Source: an uncultured Mycoplasmatota bacterium (lineage in GTDB: Bacteria; Bacillota_I; Bacilli_A; RF39; UBA660). Taken from it: a stretch of 64,000 nucleotides of DNA. The notes under the pieces were generated by a model. That model ran no database searches and was not told the origin of the DNA. It saw only the letters and a program-made list of their open reading frames with translations. Of this stretch, positions 8,377 through 38,365 are shown piece after piece. A program made the position numbers and the translations under genes. The stretch is taken from NCBI GenBank assembly GCA_948467605.1, contig CAOKET010000002.1:14410-78409 (forward strand), given 5' to 3'. Position 1 is the first letter of the stretch. Every line of letters starts with the position of its first letter.

Positions 8377-10995
8377 TTATTTTATTTCAAACCTTTTTAC
8401 TAATGTAATAGATGTTCCATTCTTATCTTTTGTGTTAATTGATAGTTCGTATGTTCCTTCTTGAAGTGTGTAATTCATAATTTCAATTGAAAGATGTTTT
8501 GGAGTATCATTATCAATTGAATAAAGTAGTTTTGCAGGAAGCGAACCATTTTCAACCACTGATAATTTAACATCATCTGATGTTACCCAATCAATAGACT
8601 CATTAAAATCTATTGAAATAGACTTGTTATTGGAAACATTAAAATTAGTTATTTGAACTGTACTCTCTGGTTCAGTTGGTTTATCAGGTGATACATAATC
8701 AGGAAGTTTATAATGATCAACAAAGCCAGTACGATAGTTTCCAACTTCATCTATAAATAATGCCCAAACTCTTGTATTTTTTGTCACCTTAATTCCTGTT
8801 AAATCAATGGTAATAGTATTAGAACCAGCATTTAATGTTTGTTGTTTACTTTCTATTGCTCCAGTTAATATATCATTTGCAAAAGGTGTAGTTGAGTTAT
8901 TAGCATATATTGCGCCATTCCATTCATAAACACCATAATATACAACTCCTGGTTCATCTGAATTAAATGTAAATTCTGCAGTATTTTCATCAACTCTAGT
9001 CACATTATCTACTGCACCTGTAATTACAGGTGGGTTAAAGTGAGATACAAAGGTACCTTCTATTTTCTCATTTTCAGATATTTTAATTTTAACGGTATAC
9101 TTATTATCTTTATGTCCATAATTATCAGGAACGATTAAAATATATGTTAATCGATCTGGACTTGTAATAAAAGTTGCACCATTTGTTGTTAAGTTTTTTT
9201 CTTGTGGACATTCTATTTCAAAATCACTTAATGTTAATTCTTTTTCAGGTGCTTTATTTAATACAAAGACAAAGCGATTAATAATTTCTTCTTTTGCATA
9301 GGTTATTTGGTAACTACTTCTATTTACTTCTTTTATTTGGCTAGGTATTTCAAAAGGTCCTTTTACTTTAGCAATATTATCAAAATATCCCTCTAAAACG
9401 TAATATAAATTATATGATTTTCCTGCTTCTAAATTATCTATTGAAATTATATTGTATCCTACCTTCACAGGCTCAGATTTTCCTTTTGCCTTTAATGATT
9501 CTGCACTAATGATTTCTTTCGTTGTATTATCTTCTAGTATGTAATATATATGTCCGCCTTCATCTACACCATATAATTCTAATGTGGCTTTTTCATCAGA
9601 TATTCTTTCAACTACTACATTGTTTACAGTTGGATTTGCATAATCTGTATCAAAATCCCTGCTTATAATATTTCCATTTGGAAGAGTAATGTAAAGAGCA
9701 TAAGAATCATTTTTGTAATAAGAAGTAGTTAATGTATATGTTTTATTATCAGTTGTAGTAAGATTAAACAAAGTTATACTTTTTCCAGCATTACAAATAA
9801 CAGAAATATCATTTATAGTTAAATTAACTGGTTCGCTTAAAGTAAATGTAACGCTTCCCTGTGTATTTGAGATGGCACTTACAATTTCAATTTTGTTTTC
9901 TTTTCTAATTAAAATATTATCTATGTTTTCACCAATTGTAGGTTGGTTTGTAACATTTGTATATATCATTGTATTATTTGATTCGATTGTAGTATCAATT
10001 ATTGTTCCATTTCCTGATACTGTTGTATTTTCTCCTTGATTTTTAAAAGTTTTAATTGTATTTCCTTTATTTACTCTAATAGTACTACTTTCTTTATTTG
10101 TGAAAGTATTAATTGGTGCATTGACAATAATTGTAGCATTACTACTTGAATTTGTAAGCGTATCTATACTCCCGTTAATAGCAATTGTTCCCTGTGTATT
10201 TAAAGTAGCATTTTTTATTGGGACATTTAAAACTACTTCAGATCCAGAATTAACTTCTACATTTGTAACACTAGTTGTTCCGTTTATTTCAATATTACTA
10301 TTTATAGAAATTGATTGTACTGTACTTCCATTTTTTAAATTAACAGTTGCCCCATCTAGTGCTTTGTTCATTCCAACAGTTGCTCTAGATCTTAAAACTA
10401 GTCTTTTTGTTTGATTAGTTACATCAATTGACGCTAGGGAGGAATTTATAATATCTAATTGATAATTTCCTGGTTTTTCTAATACTAGTTTATTATTAAC
10501 TTGTATGCTGTCTAATACAATTTTTACATTTTCTTCTATATTTGAACTAACAGTAAGTGTGTTATATTTCTTATTTGATACTAGTATTTCACCATCTTTT
10601 ATCATACTATTAGTAATTATTAAATCTTCAATTTTTTCTGGTTCATTAGGTTGACCTGGTTCAGATGGTTTGGCTGGCTTTGATGGTTTTGTTTGATTTG
10701 AACCTGATTGGGTATTAGAGTTTGTACCAGTTGATGGGTTGTTTTCAACTTCTGTAGATATGTGATTTTTATCCTCGCTAGAGTCTTCTTGTGTTACATC
10801 ATTATTATCTACAGTTTGATCTTTTGAATCCGTGTTTAATTTTTCATCATTATCAATTACTGGTTTTTGATCTTGAGGTTGTTTTTGATTTTTTATATGA
10901 TGGTTATTTTTAATAATAAAAGTACAAGTGATTATAACTAGTGCACAAACAACAACAGCACAAATAGCAGTAATTATTTTTGAGTTTTTACTCAT
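8377..10995 (-). CDS. Large cell-surface protein: N-terminal membrane anchor, Pro/Ser/Thr-rich linker, beta-helix-like repeat region
   Basis: N-terminal TM (IITAICAVVVCALVIITCTFII). A low-complexity PST-rich stretch (SKPAKPSEPGQPNEPE). Long N/T/S/V-rich repetitive segments typical of right-handed beta-helix adhesins. Confidence 0.6.
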   Translation of the reverse strand: MSKNSKIITAICAVVVCALVIITCTFIIKNNHHIKNQKQPQDQKPVIDNDEKLNTDSKDQTVDNNDVTQEDSSEDKNHISTEVENNPSTGTNSNTQSGSNQTKPSKPAKPSEPGQPNEPEKIEDLIITNSMIKDGEILVSNKKYNTLTVSSNIEENVKIVLDSIQVNNKLVLEKPGNYQLDIINSSLASIDVTNQTKRLVLRSRATVGMNKALDGATVNLKNGSTVQSISINSNIEINGTTSVTNVEVNSGSEVVLNVPIKNATLNTQGTIAINGSIDTLTNSSSNATIIVNAPINTFTNKESSTIRVNKGNTIKTFKNQGENTTVSGNGTIIDTTIESNNTMIYTNVTNQPTIGENIDNILIRKENKIEIVSAISNTQGSVTFTLSEPVNLTINDISVICNAGKSITLFNLTTTDNKTYTLTTSYYKNDSYALYITLPNGNIISRDFDTDYANPTVNNVVVERISDEKATLELYGVDEGGHIYYILEDNTTKEIISAESLKAKGKSEPVKVGYNIISIDNLEAGKSYNLYYVLEGYFDNIAKVKGPFEIPSQIKEVNRSSYQITYAKEEIINRFVFVLNKAPEKELTLSDFEIECPQEKNLTTNGATFITSPDRLTYILIVPDNYGHKDNKYTVKIKISENEKIEGTFVSHFNPPVITGAVDNVTRVDENTAEFTFNSDEPGVVYYGVYEWNGAIYANNSTTPFANDILTGAIESKQQTLNAGSNTITIDLTGIKVTKNTRVWALFIDEVGNYRTGFVDHYKLPDYVSPDKPTEPESTVQITNFNVSNNKSISIDFNESIDWVTSDDVKLSVVENGSLPAKLLYSIDNDTPKHLSIEIMNYTLQEGTYELSINTKDKNGTSITLVKRFEIK

Positions 10996-11205
10996 ATTAT
11001 CACTCCTTTTCCCTATATTTTTACATATTTTTTATAATATGTCAATTACACTTTACAATTTTTTATATAAGGATTCATTACTTTAATACATTAAATTTTA
11101 TGATAGTTTATGAATTTTAGTGACAGAATTTCTATATTCTCTAGCATGTATGTTTTTACTTCAAAATTTCTTTATTAATATATTATCAACCCCATAAATC
11201 CATAT

Positions 11206-11922
11206 TTAACGATTACTTTTAAAATCAATATTAGATAACTTTGCTTGTTTAATTAAGTCTTTTGTCGATAATTTATATTGTTTTCCATCTTTTATAAAAT
11301 AAGTTCCACATTGTCTAAATTCAAAACTAACGTTTTTTCTGATACATTGTTCTCTAATATCTAAAGCCCAAGAATAGTCAAATACTCTAGCATTACAATC
11401 TGATTCTCCACCAACCACTACAAGTTCGATTGTTTCAAGATATTTTTCTATATCAATTCTTTCTAATAATGGCTGTGCTGTAATACATTTATGTTTTATT
11501 GGTAAGTCTTTAAATATAGATAATTTGTAATCTGCATTCTTCCTATTTTCGATAGTACAACATACAACTACATTATCATATCCATCTTTCCAATCATTTG
11601 GAATACATTTCATAAATCTATCAATTCTTTTTGTTAAAAATAGAAAAATACAATCTTGTCTTTCTCTTATCATATTCCAACAATCATCACGCCACTCATC
11701 TGCTTCTTCAATTAAAAAGTCAGTTGAAAAACATAAATAAACAATACCTGATTTCATTTTATAGTTGCCATTTTTTAATTTTTCTATTGGTTTTTCGAAA
11801 TCCTTTGTTTTTATAATTTCATTAGTATTTATATTTCTTTTTAAATCACCTTTATGAATATAGCAATGTAAACACCCATCACTACATTTTTTACACCCTC
11901 GCCATGGATTCCACATTGCCAT
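11206..11922 (-). CDS. DUF5131 (phage Gp37/Gp68 family) protein with a radical-SAM-like CxxxCxxC motif
   Basis: The N-terminus WNPWRGCKKCSDGCLHCY matches the family signature (WNP..GC...S.GC..CY). A GGE-like motif (VVGGESD) follows downstream. The probable start is the ATG (MAMWNPW), with RBS AGGGG 8 nt upstream. Confidence 0.6.
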   Translation of the reverse strand: MAMWNPWRGCKKCSDGCLHCYIHKGDLKRNINTNEIIKTKDFEKPIEKLKNGNYKMKSGIVYLCFSTDFLIEEADEWRDDCWNMIRERQDCIFLFLTKRIDRFMKCIPNDWKDGYDNVVVCCTIENRKNADYKLSIFKDLPIKHKCITAQPLLERIDIEKYLETIELVVVGGESDCNARVFDYSWALDIREQCIRKNVSFEFRQCGTYFIKDGKQYKLSTKDLIKQAKLSNIDFKSNR

Positions 11923-11933
11923 ATCATTCACCC

Positions 11934-12386
11934 CTAAAATCTTGATTTTTCATAATTGTAAGGAATGCTTGTTCCTACAACAACATCTTCTATCTTTTCT
12001 ATAATTAACCAATCATCCATATTACCTTGATGGTCAAAGTCTAATGGATTAATGCTTTCTACGTTATTAAATTCCACTAAACATAGACACTTTTTATGCC
12101 ATCTTTCTTTTTGTTTGTCAGTTAATTGTAATTTACTATTATTGTCTTCAATAGTTTTTATTATTTCATCTTCTGATAATTTAACAAAATTTTGAACATC
12201 TTTTACAACTGCCTTTGCTGTTATTTTTTTTGTTCCTTTTTCCATAAAATAAAGTATTTCGTCTTTAAATACTCTACTATGTGGTATTTTTCTTCCTGCT
12301 GCTCCTCTTATAATCATTGTTTTACTACCATCTAAAATCTTATTTAATTCTTTTGATTTGTCATCACAATATACTAAATGTACCAT
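11934..12386 (-). CDS. ASCH/PUA-like small beta-barrel protein, co-operonic with the DUF5131 gene
   Basis: 150 aa. GSKTMIIRG resembles the ASCH GxKxxExR motif. 11-nt gap to the downstream gene, which carries an RBS. RBS AAAGGAGA upstream. Confidence 0.4.
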   Translation of the reverse strand: MVHLVYCDDKSKELNKILDGSKTMIIRGAAGRKIPHSRVFKDEILYFMEKGTKKITAKAVVKDVQNFVKLSEDEIIKTIEDNNSKLQLTDKQKERWHKKCLCLVEFNNVESINPLDFDHQGNMDDWLIIEKIEDVVVGTSIPYNYEKSRF

Positions 12387-12408
12387 AATTTTTTCTCCTT
12401 TTTCTAAT

Positions 12409-12438
12409 TTACAAATTACTATTTTACAAATTACTATT
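12409..12438. repeat. Two perfect tandem 15-bp direct repeats TTACAAATTACTATT in the 5' region of the ASCH-DUF5131 operon
   Basis: Read directly from the sequence at 12409-12423 and 12424-12438, about 25-55 nt upstream of the ATG at 12386 on the coding strand. They overlap a -10-like TAAAAT. Confidence 0.7.
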
Positions 12439-12936
12439 CATGCAAAACTTTGTATTAAAATTATACCATAAAAAAGCAAAATCTAAATTGATTATACTCT
12501 TATTCCTCGAAAAATTTATCTATTCTAGCATCTATTATTATAGAAATCTTGTATAAGGTCATAAGTGATATATTATTTCTATCATTAGATATCTAATACA
12601 TTTTAGATGATTGACTGATACACCTAATTTTTCATCAACCTTACGCCTTTTTCATTCCTATATTTTTTGACGTTTAAATCTAAAAACACTTAAAAATGTT
12701 AAATAGAGGCATATTTTAAAAATATAAATTACCACATAGAGTATTAAAAAAGTGATAGGTATTTCGGACTATCTTCAGGGGACTGCAATATTGTAATAAA
12801 TTGCTTAAAAAGTGTAATAATTTGGCTAATTTTTGATAAGAGATCTCAACTAAAGAGAACAAAATTAAATAAAAGTATCTAATTTGTATGTAAATTGTAT
12901 CTGCCCTCTTCAGGTATATTCGGTTAAATAAGCTTA

Positions 12937-12960
12937 AACAAAAAAACATATTTCTATGTT
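12937..12960 (-). terminator. Rho-independent terminator after the R-M operon
   Basis: Hairpin AACATA-tttc-TATGTT, followed on the minus strand by a 7-U run (A-run at 12938-12944 on the plus strand). It sits 5 nt past the stop at 12965. Confidence 0.6.
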
Positions 12961-12964
12961 CAAA

Positions 12965-14158
12965 TTATAAATTATTAAAATAATCGATTATTTCCTTCTT
13001 TGAGACATCAAGTGTTATATGAACAGATATAGTGGGATTTAACTGATTTACATCTTTTCTTTTAAAAATTACATAATCATTTTCTAATATTGCTTTTTCA
13101 TATTTAACATAAAAAAATTTGTTAAATTTTACTCTTCCAGGTTCTGATGATCCACTACTATTTTTGATTTCTATATTTGGATTCATTTTTACTTTAATCA
13201 TTTCGTCTGGTAAGTATTCTGCATCAAATTCTTTCATTATCTTATTAAATAACCCATCAAGAACTAATTGTTTTCCATTTCTACCTGTCGTTCTAATTTC
13301 GCTACCACGAGTCGATACTATTCTACTTCCATCGTTTAAGTGAGCATTTAAAATATCTGGCTCCAATGCAATCAATTCATTTTCTTTTGTTGCACTTACA
13401 TAAATATCAATGTTTTTTCTAGAAAAATAACATAAAGCAGCATCAATCAATTCTTGTTCATCAAATTTATCTCTATAATTATGACCTATTTCGGAAATCA
13501 AATTTGTTTCATTATTAAATTGTTCGACAAACTTAATTAATTCTGGAGTCTTTTCTTCAAAATTATCTGTTAAAATCAATTTACCATGTTCATCATAATA
13601 TAAATCAGATTCTCCCGCTTTTGCTTCCCTCTTTTTAAATTCTAATTTGATTTTATTGTTATTAATTATTATTTCAGCATCACCTTCGGCAGGATTACCA
13701 TACTGAAAAATAAAAATATTGGGATTTCGAGTACTATAAAACAAATATCTAGCAGCAGAATATGTTTGTTGCCCAGAGTTTAAAAAGTTTCTACATTCAA
13801 CAGGAAGAGAGTTTAAAGGCGATCTATCAAAATCGATACACTTATTTAGCTTAAATATTTTAGCTAATGTTTCAATATAATTACATTCAGATAATATTGA
13901 TCTTTGTAATGATTTTCCGCTATTATATTGTTTTTCTAATTCATAATTTCCGCTTCTTATCTTTTCTATGCAACCAATTATTTCATAATTTTTTTGTAAA
14001 TATTCTTCATATTCTTCATCTATTTTATGATTTTCTTTATAAAATTTTTCAATCCTTTTAATTTCTTCATCTGTTAATACCAAATTAGAATCATTTGAAT
14101 ATATTGTATCAAGAAAAAAAGATATTGCTTCTTCTCTATTCATCATTATCATCCTCAC
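12965..14158 (-). CDS. Putative type II restriction endonuclease (cognate of the upstream methyltransferase)
   Basis: 397 aa with no recognisable family motif. The call rests on context: a 23-nt overlap with the 3' end of the MTase gene, same strand, and a terminator directly after it. Confidence 0.4.
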   Translation of the reverse strand: MRMIMMNREEAISFFLDTIYSNDSNLVLTDEEIKRIEKFYKENHKIDEEYEEYLQKNYEIIGCIEKIRSGNYELEKQYNSGKSLQRSILSECNYIETLAKIFKLNKCIDFDRSPLNSLPVECRNFLNSGQQTYSAARYLFYSTRNPNIFIFQYGNPAEGDAEIIINNNKIKLEFKKREAKAGESDLYYDEHGKLILTDNFEEKTPELIKFVEQFNNETNLISEIGHNYRDKFDEQELIDAALCYFSRKNIDIYVSATKENELIALEPDILNAHLNDGSRIVSTRGSEIRTTGRNGKQLVLDGLFNKIMKEFDAEYLPDEMIKVKMNPNIEIKNSSGSSEPGRVKFNKFFYVKYEKAILENDYVIFKRKDVNQLNPTISVHITLDVSKKEIIDYFNNL

Positions 14159-15698
14159 TTTCTACAAATAAAGAACTACTATGGACTCTATTGAAAATAT
14201 TAACATCGCTTTTTATTCCAAGGGCTTCTAAAAAAATTTTATTTATATTATTTCTATATTCAATTGGAAATTTGATGTTTTCTTGTTTTTTTCCAGCATT
14301 CATTTTATATGTTAAATATTTAGTCTCATTATTTTGCATTTCTTCTGCTATTTTATTAATTTCTTTTTTTTGTTCATTTGTTAACTTGTTAAAAAATATT
14401 GGTATACTATTAATAATTGTTAAGGGGCAATTTATTCCACCATCATATAATCTCCAATACCAATATGCAAATGTAGAATTTAGCATACAATATACATAAT
14501 TGTATTTTTCTTTATCTTCTACATGAACTACTCGTTTACCATCTCTATTTAATTCTCTCTTAGAACCTACTGTGAAATATCTACATGTTGTAGGAACAAA
14601 TATTTCATATCCATCTTTTGTACCAATTATATTTCCCATTTTTTGATCTGAGACATTTTCCCATTGATCTAAAACATTAATTAATTCATTGTGGCATTTA
14701 TAGTATGCTTTCTTTTTTGAATCGATTAATTGATATCTATCATTAATAATACTTTCTAGATATTTCTTTTTTAACATTTTAGCTCTTTCATCAGTTTTAA
14801 ATCTTATTAGTGGACTAAATCTAAAACCATTAACTCCGTCTTTATTTTCAACAACTGTTATTGCTGATCTTACAGAATTTCCTTTATTACTATTAAAAAT
14901 TCCATGCTTTCTTCCATTGAATATGTTACCTGGTACATTATCAAATGACACTACAAAACCATTGTAATTATTCATTACTTGTCTTAAACTGTAAAACTTA
15001 CCACTACCTATAAAACTATATGGAGTAATTATAACTGATTTATTGCTTTGCTTAATTATCTTTTCTATAAAACTTGAGTATAACTCTTTAGAATCAATAA
15101 CTACTTTTGTTACATCCCAATCTTCACCAATATTTAATATTTTATAATAAGGTGGATTTGAAATTACTTTAGAGTTTTTAGGTAATTTAACTTTTTTACT
15201 TAAAAAATCACAATGTTTCGCATTTATCTTGTTTAATAATTCTTTACCATATTTAATTGCAATAGTATACTTACAAATTCCAAGTGCTATTTCATCCACA
15301 TCATATAAATATAAATTACCATTAGAAATTAAATTGTAAGCCTTTTCTTTACCTATTAATTCTAAATATGCCAAGATTAAATTTCCAGCACCACAACCAA
15401 CATCGCAAACATTTTCTGCATCTAAAGGTTCTAACCACTCAGACATCAATAATGCTACATCTTTTGGAGTATAGTATTTTCCCATTTCTTTTTTATTAAT
15501 TTTATTTTCATGTTCTAATCCTATTTCATATAATTCTCCATAATTATCTATTTCAAACAGATCAGACTCAAATTCTTTTTCTAATGTCTTAGATAGTATT
15601 GAATGCCATGTTTTTTTTAGTCCTTTTTTATCGATATCATTTATATAATCTTCAATTAAATACTTTGCCATATCAATACCATCCTTTCCTATAAACAT
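14136..15698 (-). CDS. N6-adenine DNA methyltransferase, gamma class (Eco57I/TaqI-like N6_Mtase)
   Basis: GKYYTPKDVA (motif X-like), DVGCGAGNL (motif I, SAM-binding), ISNPPYYK (motif IV, NPPY). 520 aa. Confidence 0.85.
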   Translation of the reverse strand: MFIGKDGIDMAKYLIEDYINDIDKKGLKKTWHSILSKTLEKEFESDLFEIDNYGELYEIGLEHENKINKKEMGKYYTPKDVALLMSEWLEPLDAENVCDVGCGAGNLILAYLELIGKEKAYNLISNGNLYLYDVDEIALGICKYTIAIKYGKELLNKINAKHCDFLSKKVKLPKNSKVISNPPYYKILNIGEDWDVTKVVIDSKELYSSFIEKIIKQSNKSVIITPYSFIGSGKFYSLRQVMNNYNGFVVSFDNVPGNIFNGRKHGIFNSNKGNSVRSAITVVENKDGVNGFRFSPLIRFKTDERAKMLKKKYLESIINDRYQLIDSKKKAYYKCHNELINVLDQWENVSDQKMGNIIGTKDGYEIFVPTTCRYFTVGSKRELNRDGKRVVHVEDKEKYNYVYCMLNSTFAYWYWRLYDGGINCPLTIINSIPIFFNKLTNEQKKEINKIAEEMQNNETKYLTYKMNAGKKQENIKFPIEYRNNINKIFLEALGIKSDVNIFNRVHSSSLFVESEDDNDE

Positions 15699-15746
15699 TA
15701 TACCATAAATATTGGTAATAACATTAAAAAGGCAGGAATTTTCCCG

Positions 15747-16577
15747 CTAAATTAATTTAATATGTATATTATTATCTTTATCTAAATTCCATGTACATTT
15801 AGTAGGATTATACAATCCCTCATTTGTTTTTAAATTGTACTTTTTATATAATCTGCTCATTTCTTTTGAAAAATATTTTCTATCTTTACTTATTGGAACA
15901 TTTTTTAATATTTCTCCATTGAAAGTTAAATCAAAAAAATCTTTATCGCAAGAAAATTTTTCAAGTACTATTCTTGGGATTCTCAAAATTGTTGCTCTTA
16001 TATCATTCACAGAAATTTCTTTATCAACGCTTAATATAATTTCATCATTATTTGTGCGCACTATATCAATACTACTGTTTTTTTCCTTATAAAATGACTT
16101 CAATTCATTTAAGCTAAATTTTGGTTCATATACAAATCCGATATTTTTTTCAATACATAAATCTATTAATTCTTCACCATCTATTAATATAAGCTTGTAT
16201 CCTAATTTACTCTTGGCGGCTAATTCTGCTTCTTTTGTAAATCTTCCAGTTGTAATAATAATTCCAACCTCATCAGAATTAATAATGCCTAAGTGCCTTT
16301 GAATAATTTCAATTCCAATTGGAGAACCAGGTTTATATCTTTTTGCTTGAATTTTATAAATAACACTGTCTACATCATCATTTATTAAACTAGGTCTTAT
16401 AGCTTCTAAATCTATTCCTCCATCGCCTGAGGCTTTAGTTACAACAACTTCACTTAATCCTAATTTTTCAAGAAATGGTTTTAAAAATTTTTCAAACTCA
16501 TAGCCATTTTCAAACGATTTGTAAAATTGATCTAACACATGCTTTTTTTCTTCGTTATTAAGAGATACAATTGCCAT
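15747..16577 (-). CDS. Mrr-catalytic-domain restriction endonuclease with an extra C-terminal domain
   Basis: ASGDGGIDLEAI ... YKIQAKRY ... GIIITTGRFTKEA matches the Mrr_cat PD-(D/E)xK fold (D...QxK). The C-terminal ~130 aa are unassigned. Confidence 0.7.
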   Translation of the reverse strand: MAIVSLNNEEKKHVLDQFYKSFENGYEFEKFLKPFLEKLGLSEVVVTKASGDGGIDLEAIRPSLINDDVDSVIYKIQAKRYKPGSPIGIEIIQRHLGIINSDEVGIIITTGRFTKEAELAAKSKLGYKLILIDGEELIDLCIEKNIGFVYEPKFSLNELKSFYKEKNSSIDIVRTNNDEIILSVDKEISVNDIRATILRIPRIVLEKFSCDKDFFDLTFNGEILKNVPISKDRKYFSKEMSRLYKKYNLKTNEGLYNPTKCTWNLDKDNNIHIKLI

Positions 16578-16946
16578 AAAATCACCTCATCAATCAATAA
16601 ATATTATAACACAAAATAACAGTTTTACCGTAATATCTTGCTAATTTATTGCAATTAGTTACATTCATAGCTTAATTTGTATGTATTATTAAGTTTATTG
16701 TAATTTCAAAAAGTGCCTTAAAGCCTTATTTTACGGGCTTTTAAGCAAAAAAATACCCCGATCTCTCAGGTCTTCAGTGGGCTTTTATTTAATTTTAAAA
16801 CTTTTATTTTTCTTTATATTTCGTTTAATTTTCACCAATTTTGATTAAAATAAATTAAAGTATAAATATAAAAGTTTAAAATTTTGCTACCTAAATGCTA
16901 CCTGAAAATTTAAAAAATATTCTTTCATAGAAATTGTAATTTGTAA

Positions 16947-17612
16947 TTAAAATTCATTTTCCAAAATATGATTTAGAAACTCCACAATATAAATTTCCCT
17001 ACCTTTAAATAAAACTCTGTTAACATTCTGATTATTTATAAGTAAAGTACCTTTTAGCATATCATATTCTACACAACAATAATTATCTATCTTAAGTAAT
17101 TTATCTTTTAGTTTTATTTCAGGTATATTATAAATCATTGCAAGTTCACTTCCTATGTTCCTTTCTTTTGCTCTAAATAAATGTCCACAATATAAACATA
17201 AGTGAGTTCTATGTGGTGTATAGGCAAATTGCCCATTATCAGAGTGGTAGCGACCACAATGACTGCATTTTACTATTTCTAATGGTATATTATTTAGTTT
17301 AGCTAGCATTATTCCTCCAAAATCTTTATAAGTTAATAAAGAATTATCATATTCTAAAACTCCACTAAATTCATTATTATTTATTATTATTTTAGGTATA
17401 ACACTTTCTAAAACGTTTTCATATCTAATATTTATATCTTTGATTTCATTTTGCTTAATATTTAATCTATTATCGTATATTTCTTTATTACTCCAAAGAC
17501 ATTCATCAAGTTTGTTTCCCAATTTATCATAAGCAAAAGATTTATGAACAGTACAATAATATTTAGTTGTTCCTTGTCTTGATTTTCCAATATATTCTAT
17601 ATTACATTTCAT
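16947..17612 (-). CDS. Hypothetical protein with a CxxC-x19-CxxC zinc-ribbon
   Basis: 221 aa. CSHCGRYH...HRTHLCLYCGH zinc-ribbon-like pattern. No family recognised. Lies inside the defense-island block. Confidence 0.45.
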   Translation of the reverse strand: MKCNIEYIGKSRQGTTKYYCTVHKSFAYDKLGNKLDECLWSNKEIYDNRLNIKQNEIKDINIRYENVLESVIPKIIINNNEFSGVLEYDNSLLTYKDFGGIMLAKLNNIPLEIVKCSHCGRYHSDNGQFAYTPHRTHLCLYCGHLFRAKERNIGSELAMIYNIPEIKLKDKLLKIDNYCCVEYDMLKGTLLINNQNVNRVLFKGREIYIVEFLNHILENEF

Positions 17613-17646
17613 AGTTTCATCCCCTCCAAATTAGATTGAAATTTTT

Positions 17647-18270
17647 TTATTTAATCGTTTCTATTTTATTACTTTTAAGTATATTTAATTTTTCTGGATC
17701 ATTTAGTAATGATAAACTATCGACTAACTTAACACCATTGATTTCTTTTGGAATAGGATACTCTTTTAAACTTAAAAATTCTTGTTGATATACCTTTTGA
17801 TTTAACAACTTGTCTATATTATTTACTTCATTTGCTATATAACTTTCTAAATAATAAAGAGTATAAACATTTTGTGACTTTGAATATTTAAGTTCATAAT
17901 GTGAAGCCAATCTTTTACTAATTGTTGTCTCATTAACCCCAAAGGTTTCATTAAATTCTTCTATAAGAACCTGTTTTCTTTTCTCCTCATTAAATCCTTT
18001 TTCTATTTCATATTTTGTAGTATAAATATCATTGTATAGATCAATAAGTTCTTTATATGTAATATCTTTATTTTCAATATTGAAATCATTCATTGTAAAT
18101 TTATTGTGCTGTTGAAAAAATGGATATAGCACATTCCAAGTAGTAGGCTTTATATTATATAACACTAATCCCTTATCAGTATATGTATATAAGTCTGTTG
18201 CACTATCTAACCTAGTTGGAAACATTTCTTTAGGTACTTTTTGATTAAGTATGTCTTTAGTTATAATCAT
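17647..18270 (-). CDS. Hypothetical protein (207 aa), immediately upstream of and co-directional with the zinc-ribbon protein
   Basis: The ORF is roughly 34 nt from the downstream gene. No motifs recognised. Confidence 0.4.
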   Translation of the reverse strand: MIITKDILNQKVPKEMFPTRLDSATDLYTYTDKGLVLYNIKPTTWNVLYPFFQQHNKFTMNDFNIENKDITYKELIDLYNDIYTTKYEIEKGFNEEKRKQVLIEEFNETFGVNETTISKRLASHYELKYSKSQNVYTLYYLESYIANEVNNIDKLLNQKVYQQEFLSLKEYPIPKEINGVKLVDSLSLLNDPEKLNILKSNKIETIK

Positions 18271-18391: not shown

Positions 18392-18628
18392 TCAAATTGA
18401 TTTATTTTTGACAAATACTCCATCTAATGAAACTTCTAATAGCTCTCCTTCAAAATTTTCTGCTGTAAATATTGTTCCCTCGGCAGAATCTTTCCAATAA
18501 GACATTACTTGTAATCTAGGGTTAATTAAGTGTAAGCCTGTTTCTTCATAAAACTCTCTTGTTATACAATCCAACGGAGTTTCCACTTGTTCAAACTTAC
18601 CACCTGAAGGGGCATATACTTGCCGCAT
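18392..18628 (-). pseudogene. NUDIX hydrolase remnant (Nudix box retained, N-terminal beta strands missing)
   Basis: GGKFEQVETPLDCITREFYEETGL is the Nudix box GX5EX7REUXEEXGU. The ORF is only 78 aa, with an in-frame stop 4 codons upstream of the ATG. An extended -10 TGATATAAT lies about 15 nt upstream. Confidence 0.45.
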
Positions 18629-18770
18629 TTCTTTTATTAGTTATATTATATCATTTTATGAGCGTTATTTATACAATTTTAGGTAGCATTTTTATTAAAC
18701 TTTTTTAACCAAAATTAACACTTTTTAAAGTTTTCTATATAAATTTTTATCATTTTTAGTTCATAATAAC

Positions 18771-18921: not shown

Positions 18922-19776
18922 TTAATTTAATTTTTTTAGTTTGATTTTTCCAGTATATACGGCATCTGCGGTACCCGTTAGGTATACATTGTTTGTACAG
19001 TCAAAGTCCCAGTAAACTTTTAAAACTCCATTCTTCATATAAACGTCTACTCCCCTATTTGTCTTATTTGTTATAGCAGATGCTACTCCTGAGGCACATG
19101 CACCAGTTCCACATGCTAATGTTTCTCCACTGCCCCTTTCCCATACTCTCATTCTTATTCTATTTCTATCAATTATTTCTACAAATTCTACATTTGTTCT
19201 ATTTTTAAACATTTCATGATTTTCTATACTAGGTCCTAATTCGTTTATATTGACTTTATCGACATCTCCAACAAATATTACGGCATGAGGATTACCCATT
19301 GATAATATTGTTACATCTAGAGTTTTTCCATTAACTATTATTGGTTTATTAATGTAATCATTTATATTTTCATCAATTCCAACAGCACTTCCTCTAAAAT
19401 TTGGTTGACCCATGTTTACCCTCACTGTTTCTATTTCTCTTGTTGTATTATTTATATTTAAAAATATATCCTTTATTCCGCTTAATGTATCTATTTTTAA
19501 TTTTGGACCTTTTATTTTTCTTTCTTCATATAGGTAAAGTGCAACACATCTTATTGCATTACCACACATCTCTGCTTCTGAACCATCTGCATTATATATT
19601 CGCATAAAGCAGTCGGCTTTATCGCTTTTTTCCATGATTACTACACCATCAGATCCTACCCCTGTATTTCTGTTACACAACTTGCTTATATAGGGTATTA
19701 TATCTAATTTACCATCATCTAAGTTGTCTATAAATATATAGTCATTTCCTAGACCATGCATTTTTTGAAACTCCAT
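18922..19776 (-). CDS. dapF: Diaminopimelate epimerase
   Basis: HGLGNDYIF, the CGNAIRC active-site Cys, and a second catalytic Cys in GSGETLACGTGACA. 284 aa. Confidence 0.95.
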   Translation of the reverse strand: MEFQKMHGLGNDYIFIDNLDDGKLDIIPYISKLCNRNTGVGSDGVVIMEKSDKADCFMRIYNADGSEAEMCGNAIRCVALYLYEERKIKGPKLKIDTLSGIKDIFLNINNTTREIETVRVNMGQPNFRGSAVGIDENINDYINKPIIVNGKTLDVTILSMGNPHAVIFVGDVDKVNINELGPSIENHEMFKNRTNVEFVEIIDRNRIRMRVWERGSGETLACGTGACASGVASAITNKTNRGVDVYMKNGVLKVYWDFDCTNNVYLTGTADAVYTGKIKLKKLN

Positions 19777-37102: not shown

Positions 37103-38365
37103 TTAACTATATGTCTTCATTTTAATATTTCTTCCTGTTAATTTATTTATAAATCTTAATTTCATAGTTTGATATGTATAATTAGTAACTGGTATATCAT
37201 TATCTCTTAAGTAATCAATAAACCCTTGTTTTTCTTCCTTAGTTATTAACCTCTCTTCACCATTTACTAATACACGATTTTGAGCATTTAACTCTTTTTT
37301 TTCGTTAAACGGTGCTTTTTTTATAAAATGGTAACTCTTCGATAAAACAACTCTTAAATTAAGTATTTGCGATTCTTTTTCTAGTGATTTTGATGCAGAT
37401 GTAACAAAGTATTTTGGATCTGTTTTTGCAATCATATAATAATCTAATATATCAAATTCTCTTATATAATCTTGCTCATCTACTCCACTTTCAATCATTT
37501 TTTCCATTTGAAGTGCCAATGCTGCATATTTTTCACTTTCTAAAGTTTTATTTCTATTTAATAATTCTATATATTCATTGTGCATTTCTAAGCTATATTT
37601 TTTGATTCTTAATAAAATAATCTCAATTTCTTTTTCTTCTATATTATGAGTTTTACGATATGTATATATACTGTTACCGCTTTTGATTATATTCTCTATC
37701 AACTCTATTTCTTCTTGTGGTTTTTTTGGTTCTTGTGGTTTTTTTGGTTCTTGGGTTTTTATATTTGAAGGTCTATTTGTGTTAAGCATGCGTTCATGAA
37801 ATTCTATATATTTTTCTAATTTATTTAATAAAAATATTCTTTTTGATTCATCAAAGTCAGTTAATATATGTTCTTTTAATATTCGTATGCTTACTCTTTT
37901 TTCAAAATAATACTGAAAAACTTTTATTTCATCTTCCTCATACAGTCTATTTATTAGTTTATTATATATTTTATCAAATCCTAAAGTTTGTTTTCTTAAT
38001 CCTATATCCGATTCTTTTTCTTCTAATAAGTGCTTATGTTTTTTTCTTTCCTCATCTGATGCATATGATCTTAAATATTTTGTAATTATAGTACTATGCA
38101 TATGATTGATTGTTTCTAATTCATATTTCATTACAATTTGCATTACATCCTCATTATTTTTTACTGCTTCTAGGTATTCATCAAATATTTGCTTTAATCT
38201 CAGACCTTCAATATCCTTTTTTAAACTTCTAAGAATTTCCAATACACTTTTATAATTTTTATTTGAAATATCTTCTTCATACTTTGATTTTATTTCATCA
38301 GACGAGGTTGATTTTAGTAGTTCTTCATATTTTTTTAATAAATCTATTTTTGTATATCCTTTCAT
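37103..38365 (-). CDS. Hypothetical protein with an internal PKKPQE tandem repeat
   Basis: An 18-bp tandem repeat at 37724-37759 encodes EPKKPQEPKKPQ. Otherwise helical, with no family recognised. Confidence 0.45.
   Translation of the reverse strand: MKGYTKIDLLKKYEELLKSTSSDEIKSKYEEDISNKNYKSVLEILRSLKKDIEGLRLKQIFDEYLEAVKNNEDVMQIVMKYELETINHMHSTIITKYLRSYASDEERKKHKHLLEEKESDIGLRKQTLGFDKIYNKLINRLYEEDEIKVFQYYFEKRVSIRILKEHILTDFDESKRIFLLNKLEKYIEFHERMLNTNRPSNIKTQEPKKPQEPKKPQEEIELIENIIKSGNSIYTYRKTHNIEEKEIEIILLRIKKYSLEMHNEYIELLNRNKTLESEKYAALALQMEKMIESGVDEQDYIREFDILDYYMIAKTDPKYFVTSASKSLEKESQILNLRVVLSKSYHFIKKAPFNEKKELNAQNRVLVNGEERLITKEEKQGFIDYLRDNDIPVTNYTYQTMKLRFINKLTGRNIKMKTYS

Follow-up and report, generated by a model that had tools for sequence, protein, structure and literature searches.

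Two co-directional open reading frames (ORFs) adjoin each other on the minus strand within positions 11206-12440 of a 64,000-nucleotide (nt) stretch of DNA from an uncultured Mycoplasmatota bacterium (contig CAOKET010000002.1, positions 14,410 to 78,409 of the forward strand; hereafter, the window). The first encodes an ASCH-fold protein and the second a protein of the DUF5131 (Gp37/Gp68) family. The question raised by this locus is whether the two genes belong together. A sequence-only reading had described them as an operon of a radical-SAM-like protein and a PUA/ASCH-type partner, placed at the head of a restriction-enzyme-rich island, apparently under the control of a dedicated repressor and possibly serving as a nucleic-acid modification or modification-sensing defence module. 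We conclude that the locus contains two real protein-coding genes under purifying selection rather than an obligate two-component system. The reading that we favour, with moderate confidence, is that ASCH and DUF5131 are independent cassettes which are co-transcribed through the architecture of the gene arrays in which such cassettes are found.

Both genes, where intact, are under purifying selection, with ratios of nonsynonymous to synonymous divergence (dN/dS) of 0.084 for ASCH, measured against 68 relatives, and 0.092 for DUF5131, at dS values of 0.55-0.77. The likeliest start of the DUF5131 gene is the ATG at 11922 (MAMWNPW..., as in its relatives), while the longest ORF begins at GTG 11931. 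The gap between the genes is 11 nt and no terminator was predicted between them, so co-transcription of the pair in the window is likely on sequence grounds. Of the operon proposed earlier, the adjacency of two co-directional ORFs is thus a fact and their co-transcription is plausible.

The genomic contexts of the two genes were then compared. A scan of genomes (one genome per species) for close relatives of the ASCH protein yielded 443 stretches encoding them, 80 of which were fetched and examined; contexts of distant relatives were sampled singly. An intact DUF5131 gene was present 9-14 nt downstream of ASCH in 37 of the 80 loci. It was disrupted in 16 loci (L012, L013, L015, L022, L027, L033, L036-L038, L040, L043, L045, L050, L052, L072 and L074), absent from 20, located elsewhere in the locus in 2 and cut by the contig end in 5. 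The lesions included truncations at codons 177, 144 and about 60 that were common to several genomes, as well as in-frame stops and internal deletions. A stop codon within the ASCH gene was found in only 2/80 loci. None of six distant ASCH members (35-48% identity), including those on an archaeal contig and on an Enterococcus raffinosus megaplasmid, had DUF5131 beside it, and a tblastn search against plasmids revealed the ASCH gene in only two E. raffinosus megaplasmids, where it stands alone. On the archaeal contig (L093-L095:3001-4456) the ASCH homologue, 48% identical, is convergent with a canonical Radical_SAM (PF04055) gene that it overlaps by a few bases; the neighbours there include RNase P p30 and ribosomal protein L15e.

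The DUF5131 gene, for its part, also occurs by itself. Orthologues 79-82% identical to that of the window stand without ASCH in Terrisporobacter, between ispH and a peptidase gene, and in Lachnospiraceae, after a flavodiiron-type gene. DUF5131 was found in 123 phage records, as a rule close to DNA methylase genes in regions devoted to recombination or replication, and no ASCH gene was detected in phage records by tblastn. The ASCH-DUF5131 pairing is, therefore, facultative and confined to a narrow clade, and the co-occurrence across genomes that was to be expected of a functional pair largely failed to appear.

Homology between the window and the related loci ends sharply at 11204, two bases beyond the DUF5131 stop codon, and, on the other side, at 12403-12425, 17-39 nt upstream of the ASCH ATG. 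In loci that have ASCH alone the homology border lies at 11934/5. The flanking genes differ from locus to locus and are unrelated. A 12-mer, AAATTACAATTT, was found at the cassette borders, where it is strand-specific and is located after the stop codon of one gene and before the ribosome-binding site (RBS) of the next. In 60 loci (840,663 nt) it occurs in 75 exact copies on the gene strand compared to 3 on the other, the number estimated from base composition being about one copy per strand. About 3 nt separate the motif from the stop codon before it, and 13-17 nt separate it from the start codon that follows; measured from stop to start, such junctions have a median length of 31.5 nt, and the ORFs that follow have a median length of 160 amino acids (aa). 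In direct reading AAATTACAATTT is a near-palindrome, AAATT-AC-AATTT, with an asymmetric centre. An extended dyad, GTAAT...ATTAC, is seen upstream of the motif in some cassettes; it was rejected as a general element, being unsupported by a profile of 72 junctions.

The motif is associated with the breakpoints of homology between loci. Breakpoints were located within 25 nt of a motif in 217 of 1092 cases, compared to 14.5 +/- 6.3 under random placement. Every shared ORF preceded by the motif (28/28) had a breakpoint in the 50 nt upstream, compared to 96/171 shared ORFs without it (p = 7.6e-7), and the association persisted when the ASCH/DUF5131 cassette was excluded. When copies of one cassette have different neighbours downstream, their sequences part immediately after AAATTACAA.

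The motif-bearing ORFs form co-directional head-to-tail arrays in which the same families recur in varied order (for example, L014:9181-12600, L005:6937-14030 and L008:5767-8912, among related loci L003-L082). Their products belong to PNPOx-like, flavodoxin, DUF3781, DUF4180, MGMT-DNA-binding-like, GrpB and GyrI-like families. Further products, a Tag-like glycosylase and proteins of GNAT-like and VanZ-like type, were assigned from sequence reading alone. A phage-type (tyrosine) integrase module lies next to some arrays (4/80 loci), and a large serine recombinase, in some cases together with a MobA/VirD2 relaxase, is found next to arrays in 5/80 loci. Examples are the 602-aa serine recombinase at L006:5373-7181 and the 405-aa integrase at L008:563-1780.

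Under the cassette reading, each of the two genes, from its RBS to its stop codon, would act as a promoterless cassette bounded by strand-specific AAATTACAATTT. Such cassettes stand head to tail in variable order in gut-Firmicute genomes, with small detoxification, repair and redox genes as cargo and, in some cases, with integrases, serine recombinases or relaxases next to the array, and they would move by recombination at the 12-mer. The ASCH cassette would move alone or together with DUF5131, which is often lost or decayed. The pair in the window would be the last unit of a co-directional accessory island, transcribed from a local promoter and adjoining a restriction-modification (RM) system that accompanies the pair nowhere else. 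A 15-bp tandem repeat in front of the pair (see below) would be a recent duplication of a junction-derived leader element and not a conserved operator.

These arrays resemble those of integron cassettes in that co-oriented, mostly promoterless single-ORF units are arranged in changing order, the neighbours of a given cassette differ between genomes, and homology breaks at a short common core. They differ in several respects. There is no element of the size of attC (an imperfect palindrome of at least about 55 bp): the 31.5-nt median gap contains the 12-mer as its sole conserved element. The core is AAATTACAATTT rather than GTTRRRY and is located directly upstream of the RBS. No IntI-type integrase is consistently adjacent in the 80 loci, and neither an integrase nor a serine recombinase is present in the island of the window. 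As a tentative proposal, to which we would give distinctly less weight than to the cassette reading itself, AAATT-AC-AATTT may form the core at which cassettes are recombined, and so shuffled, by an undescribed system of low-GC gut Firmicutes, integron-like and without attC. The system might be served by a serine recombinase, with the asymmetric central dinucleotide setting polarity, or by a tyrosine recombinase; ASCH and DUF5131 would be two of its cassettes, and the 15-bp duplication would be a recombination scar at a junction half-site. No description of the motif or of such arrays was found in the literature searched, which is no proof of novelty.

The identity of the ASCH protein came from structure prediction alone. 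An AlphaFold2 model was obtained with a mean predicted local distance difference test (pLDDT) score of 90.6 and a predicted template-modelling (pTM) score of 0.83. In a Foldseek search of the PDB the best match was the Zymomonas ASCH protein ZmASCH (E = 2e-6, template-modelling (TM) score 0.64-0.68), followed by TTHA0113, AF2351, the N4-acetylcytidine (ac4C) amidohydrolase YqfB and EOLA1, and, lower, by YTH and McrB-N domains. The model thus shares its beta-barrel fold with ZmASCH (5gus/5y6b), YqfB (9kyf) and human EOLA1 (5y7d), with a Foldseek probability of 1.00 and TM scores of up to 0.68. In contrast, sequence identity to the structural matches is 11-17%, and the protein has an invariant set of its own, H3, P35 and W126. 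The model and its PDB matches bear out the PUA-like beta-barrel that had been suggested for this protein, but there is no corresponding sequence match: neither Pfam ASCH (PF04266) nor PUA was matched even at E <= 1. Searches of Pfam, NCBIfam, PADLOC, PHROGs and PDB sequences, with the single sequence and with a 35-member profile, gave no match, and 0/35 family members matched ASCH, EVE or PUA Pfam models at E <= 0.1.

Relatives of this protein numbered 4765 in a database clustered at 90% and 405 representatives at 50% clustering (E <= 1e-3). The invariant set was defined in the 35-member alignment, in which R27 is near-invariant, with at least 90% conservation. The protein of the window contains a GSKTMIIR stretch that reads GxKTxxxR in the family, with K22 conserved among close members. 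The canonical ASCH N-terminal signature is G-x-K-x-x-E/x-x-R, and GSKTMIIR may resemble it. As judged from its modelled fold, the protein is a member of an unannotated ASCH subfamily. Both the ac4C amidohydrolase YqfB and readers of modified bases use the ASCH fold (PMC7641849). By analogy with YqfB and EOLA1, which act on N4-acetylcytidine, the protein would bind or hydrolyse a modified nucleoside or base.

The assignment of the second protein to DUF5131 was confirmed by a match to Pfam PF07505 (E = 1.6e-39, 136.3 bits compared to a cut-off of 28.9, residues 5-220). It also matches phrog_2045 (2.7e-42) and the PADLOC candidate components PDC-M30B and PDC-M41B (E = 3e-31 and 3e-29) and, weakly, the NCBIfam radical SAM mobile pair protein A (TIGR04471, rSAM_mob_pairA; 37.9 bits compared to a cut-off of 355). 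A search with the Pfam Radical_SAM model (PF04055) gave no match to either protein of the pair even at E <= 1, so the radical-SAM character attributed to the second gene found no support at this level.

The cysteines were examined in alignments that included phage members at 23-53% identity (from Erythrobacter, Tetraselmis-virus, Mycobacterium, Burkholderia and Natrialba phages) and, in addition, 18 beta-proteobacterial and 11 Firmicute members. The string CSDGCLHC, in which a radical-SAM CxxxCxxC triad had been recognized, is present, within CKKCSDGCLHC. The family-invariant cysteines, however, are C10, C17 and C20 (238-aa numbering), that is, G-C-x6-C-x2-C, while at C13, the first cysteine of the string, distant members have V or I and 19/117 close members have Y or I. 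Since C13 is replaced in other members, the canonical radical-SAM spacing is a clade-specific coincidence. Canonical radical SAM enzymes (PF04055; for example, spore photoproduct lyase 4fhc and viperin 5vsl) have C-x3-C-x2-C instead of C-x6-C-x2-C, and it is an extra, non-conserved cysteine that makes gene 2 imitate CxxxCxxC, unlike the DUF5131 family at large. The other common features of the family, NPW-GC, TKR, GGES and F-x-F-x-Q, are all kept together with the three cysteines. The GGE-like motif noted earlier is thus real, GGES being invariant across the alignments. The subfamily to which gene 2 belongs consists of short Firmicute proteins (about 237 aa) and lacks the C-terminal extension of phage and proteobacterial members.

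The AlphaFold2 model of the DUF5131 protein has a pLDDT of 74.7, with values below 50 in the cysteine loop. In this medium-quality model GGES appears to follow the fifth strand, compared to the second strand for the canonical GGE. RadicalSAM.org places DUF5131 as Megacluster-5-2, beside spore photoproduct lyase (PMC9477430). The term 'radical-SAM-like' is, therefore, an existing classification that is neither confirmed nor overturned by the tests run here. According to the model, gene 2 encodes an alpha/beta-barrel protein with an N-terminal three-cysteine loop. The invariant cysteines, the phage contexts and the superfamily placement together suggest an enzyme with an iron-sulphur (Fe-S) cluster in this loop and with nucleic acids or nucleotides as substrates. 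In agreement with the sequence-only reading, no established function for the DUF5131 family or for the ASCH/DUF5131 pair was found in the literature searched, which yielded the RadicalSAM.org classification and background of a general kind on ASCH/EVE proteins.

Several observations weigh against the cassette reading. All 58 loci with readable DUF5131 sequence after ASCH keep exactly the same 9-14-nt spacing, and both genes are well conserved, which leaves room for a functional link within the clade. Errors in the assembly of metagenome-assembled genomes could raise the count of disrupted DUF5131 genes. The DUF5131 cysteine loop is modelled at low confidence, and a Foldseek search with this model returned only generic TIM barrels, with nothing at E <= 1e-3. 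No consistently adjacent recombinase was found among the 80 loci. Rather than a recombination site, the junction motif could be a signal that acts in the RNA or in translation, and the starts of 56% of motif-less ORFs also coincide with breakpoints. Finally, the motif is not enriched in the window itself; as a general feature of this genome it was rejected, with 7 matches at <= 1 mismatch compared to 8.9 expected in the window.

One alternative is that the two genes form a coupled yet dispensable two-step pathway acting on modified or damaged nucleic-acid bases and travel jointly because their activities are complementary. Through Fe-S/radical chemistry, DUF5131 would introduce, remove or mend a lesion or a modification of a base, and ASCH would recognize or hydrolyse the base or nucleoside. 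Such a pathway would account for the order and the 9-14-nt spacing being fixed in every locus where both genes are adjacent, and it agrees with purifying selection on both, with the use of the ASCH fold in YqfB and modified-base readers (PMC7641849), with the presence of phage DUF5131 among recombination, single-stranded DNA-binding protein (SSB) and DNA methylase genes, and with the repair and detoxification genes (MGMT-like, GyrI-like, Tag-like) among neighbouring cassettes. However, ASCH is intact in 36/80 loci in which DUF5131 is deleted or pseudogenised, DUF5131 orthologues of about 80% identity have no ASCH neighbour, no distant ASCH relative is paired with DUF5131, and phages carry DUF5131 without ASCH. 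We therefore regard the two-step pathway as unlikely, while keeping it foremost among the alternatives.

The phage and mobile-element contexts could also mean that integrative or mobilisable elements and phages carry the pair as cargo for anti-restriction or establishment, the pair altering or masking DNA or modified nucleotides and thereby aiding the survival of incoming DNA in a new host. The 123 phage genomes with DUF5131 carry it in regions of early genes, replication or recombination, and DNA methyltransferase genes are often close by. A serine recombinase and a MobA/VirD2 relaxase immediately precede the pair in L023 and L047, and in L008, L011 and L024 it is part of an array downstream of a divergent integrase module. 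Many copies, on the other hand, are found in plain chromosomal settings, such as next to fatty-acid synthesis genes (L032, L048), and the lone Terrisporobacter orthologues lie between ispH and a peptidase gene. In addition, ASCH is absent from phage records and neither protein matches a known anti-restriction family. We give little credence to this role for the pair.

The cassette reading also bears on the 15-bp tandem repeat in the control region of the pair, which had been said to overlap the -10 element and to suggest dedicated repressor control. The two perfect copies are indeed present (the coordinates of this and other features are given in the table below). The perfect run spans 12408-12438 and has a Tandem Repeats Finder score of 63; the chance expectation for such a duplication in the window is about 0.002. 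Only two perfect tandem duplications of at least 12 bp were found in the 64 kb, the other being located at 37712-37760 (18-bp unit TTCTTGTGGTTTTTTTGG, 2.8 copies, Tandem Repeats Finder score 91). The overlap with the -10 element was not borne out. The repeats sit in the 5' leader, downstream of the best -10 and upstream of the RBS, at about +16 to +45 from the putative transcription start. The promoter on which this numbering is based is a consensus match, in a region that holds no more promoter-like sites than shuffled sequence.

A single ATAGTAATTTG is located at about -37 in L004, L005 and L046; two copies are found in no relative, and other relatives carry the forward motif or a different leader variant. 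Relatives often show TGnTATAAT 10-14 nt upstream of a single ATAGTAA element. The tandem copy is present only in the window and in L001, which has the same sequence as the window. The 15-bp unit matches the junction at 16932-16946 on the opposite strand with 1 mismatch, and resembles the cassette junction motif in inverted orientation. Since relatives have one copy or another leader, the repeat is a lineage-specific duplication of a junction- or leader-derived element, and the case for a dedicated repressor is weakened. An operator role of the repeat is possible from its position, though the comparison with relatives lends it no support. A riboswitch or structured leader was rejected: an Rfam scan gave no match and the folding z-score was -0.98.

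An out-of-frame stretch, KRRKVDEKLGVSVNHLKCI, at about 12604-12684 on the minus strand, shows a weak likeness to the N-terminus of an XRE-type helix-turn-helix (HTH) protein (41% identity over 27 aa; E = 0.005, from a very small database). XRE-type HTH proteins are the commonest neighbours in related loci, and the stretch may be a remnant of a regulator gene.

Features of the ASCH/DUF5131 locus and the adjoining accessory island (coordinates are those of the window)
Feature	Position	Strand	Details	Source
ASCH-fold gene, first of the pair	12386..11934	minus	150 aa; stop TAG at 11936-11934	ORF listing
DUF5131 (Gp37/Gp68) gene, second of the pair	11922..11206	minus	238 aa from ATG at 11922	
Junction within the pair	11923..11936	minus	TAG stop (11936-11934) overlaps DUF5131 RBS GGGGTGA (11934-11928), 5 nt before ATG	
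RBS of the ASCH gene	12394..12399	minus	AGGAG, 8 nt before ATG	
15-bp tandem duplication, perfect	12409..12438		plus strand reads TTACAAATTACTATT x2, coding strand AATAGTAATTTGTAA x2	
Best sigma-70-like promoter match	12487..12460	minus	TTTAGA-16-TGgTATAAT, extended TG, 10/12 positions	
Decayed junction and first codons of DUF3781 cassette	11140..11205	minus	directly after DUF5131 stop	
Sole exact AAATTACAATTT in the window	16931..16942	minus	just after stop of 221-aa ORF	
Restriction genes	12965..16577	minus	397-aa ORF, N6 DNA methyltransferase (520 aa), Mrr-type endonuclease (276 aa)	

The accessory island of the window is located between dapF (18922..19776) and the gene for a probable surface protein of 872 aa and lies wholly on the minus strand. 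Since all its genes (18270..11206) are on this strand, the ASCH/DUF5131 pair is the last transcription unit; it is at the head of the island, where it had been placed, only by coordinate. The decayed junction that follows the DUF5131 stop reads AAATATGGATTT in place of AAATTACAATTT, and the ATG of the next cassette has become ATT. The stretch of about 65 nt that directly follows this stop aligns with L024, L009 and L046, and the DUF3781 identity was taken from the intact homologue. The 221-aa ORF (16947..17612) recurs beside ASCH in L050 and near ASCH in L072; together with the exact motif after it, this indicates that it is probably another cassette. The decayed DUF3781 junction and the 221-aa ORF with its motif point to an array that has decayed, with the pair, now beside the RM system and the Mrr gene, as its last surviving unit.

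The restriction genes were identified by matches to Pfam N6_Mtase (4e-16) and Mrr_cat (1.4e-19) and to PADLOC MTase_II (3.9e-44). The 397-aa ORF (within 12965-15698) has no family match and shares 23 nt with the start of the methyltransferase gene; its product is probably the endonuclease of a type II restriction system. The Mrr-type gene is located at 15747-16577 on the minus strand, just upstream of the RM genes. The methylase, the 397-aa ORF and the Mrr gene of the window were found in 0/80 related loci, the only other sequence that has them being L001. The restriction-rich setting is, therefore, true of the window but not of related loci.

Several two-gene sets are known in which a DUF5131-like member resembles gene 2, namely PDC-M30, PDC-M41, DUF5131-TcmP pairs (TIGR04474) and the radical SAM mobile pair (TIGR04471). 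The partner here, in contrast, is an ASCH protein that matches no partner model of any of them, and no NCBIfam match to a TcmP partner was found for the ASCH protein or the island neighbours. An anti-phage defence or modification-sensing module, with a dedicated repressor acting on the tandem repeats, is the least probable of the explanations considered and a very improbable one: DUF5131 does match the B components of PDC-M30 and PDC-M41 (the only direct hint of defence), the pair adjoins the type II RM system and the Mrr-type enzyme in the window, standalone ASCH proteins are found beside RM systems in archaea (PMC7641849) and there is the possible XRE-type HTH remnant upstream, but the PDC systems are themselves candidates whose A components are matched by neither ASCH nor nine neighbouring proteins, the RM neighbourhood recurs in none of the 80 related loci, where the recurrent neighbours are detoxification, redox and repair cassettes, the pairing is facultative, and the tandem repeat is neither conserved nor overlapping with the -10 element.

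Other sequences of the island and its borders were also inspected. No family was matched by the 221-aa and 207-aa ORFs (16947-18270, minus strand). In the spacer that separates dapF from the 207-aa ORF there is, at about 18400-18640 on the minus strand, a short NUDIX-like reading frame; in L001:1759-1995 it is annotated as a gene of 78 aa and gives a weak NUDIX match, and it is apparently a gene fragment. The 872-aa ORF (8377-10995, minus strand) has an N-terminal membrane anchor and a Ser/Thr/Asn-rich low-complexity region and no Pfam match; its product is probably a surface protein, and the gene marks the downstream border of the island. The GC profile was rejected as an island marker, as it shows no contrast in the window.

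The two proteins are of kinds already known, to which they add a new member and an unannotated subfamily, and the pairing itself is weak. The picture of a radical-SAM enzyme and a reader domain next to restriction enzymes calls for caution: the neighbourhood is facultative and the canonical-looking cysteine motif is not the conserved one. The unannotated ASCH subfamily is now defined, with 405 representatives and close relatives in 443 genome stretches, and with C-x6-C-x2-C fixed as the true DUF5131 motif, biochemists can tell which cysteines to mutate. The most interesting feature of the locus is the 12-base junction signal, a compact mark of shuffled arrays of small accessory genes in gut Firmicutes, and what could be new is the arrays that these junctions delimit. 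If the signal is a recombination site, it would mean that gene cassettes are exchanged in the gut microbiome by a new route, and it would provide a simple sequence handle for locating mobile cargo genes.

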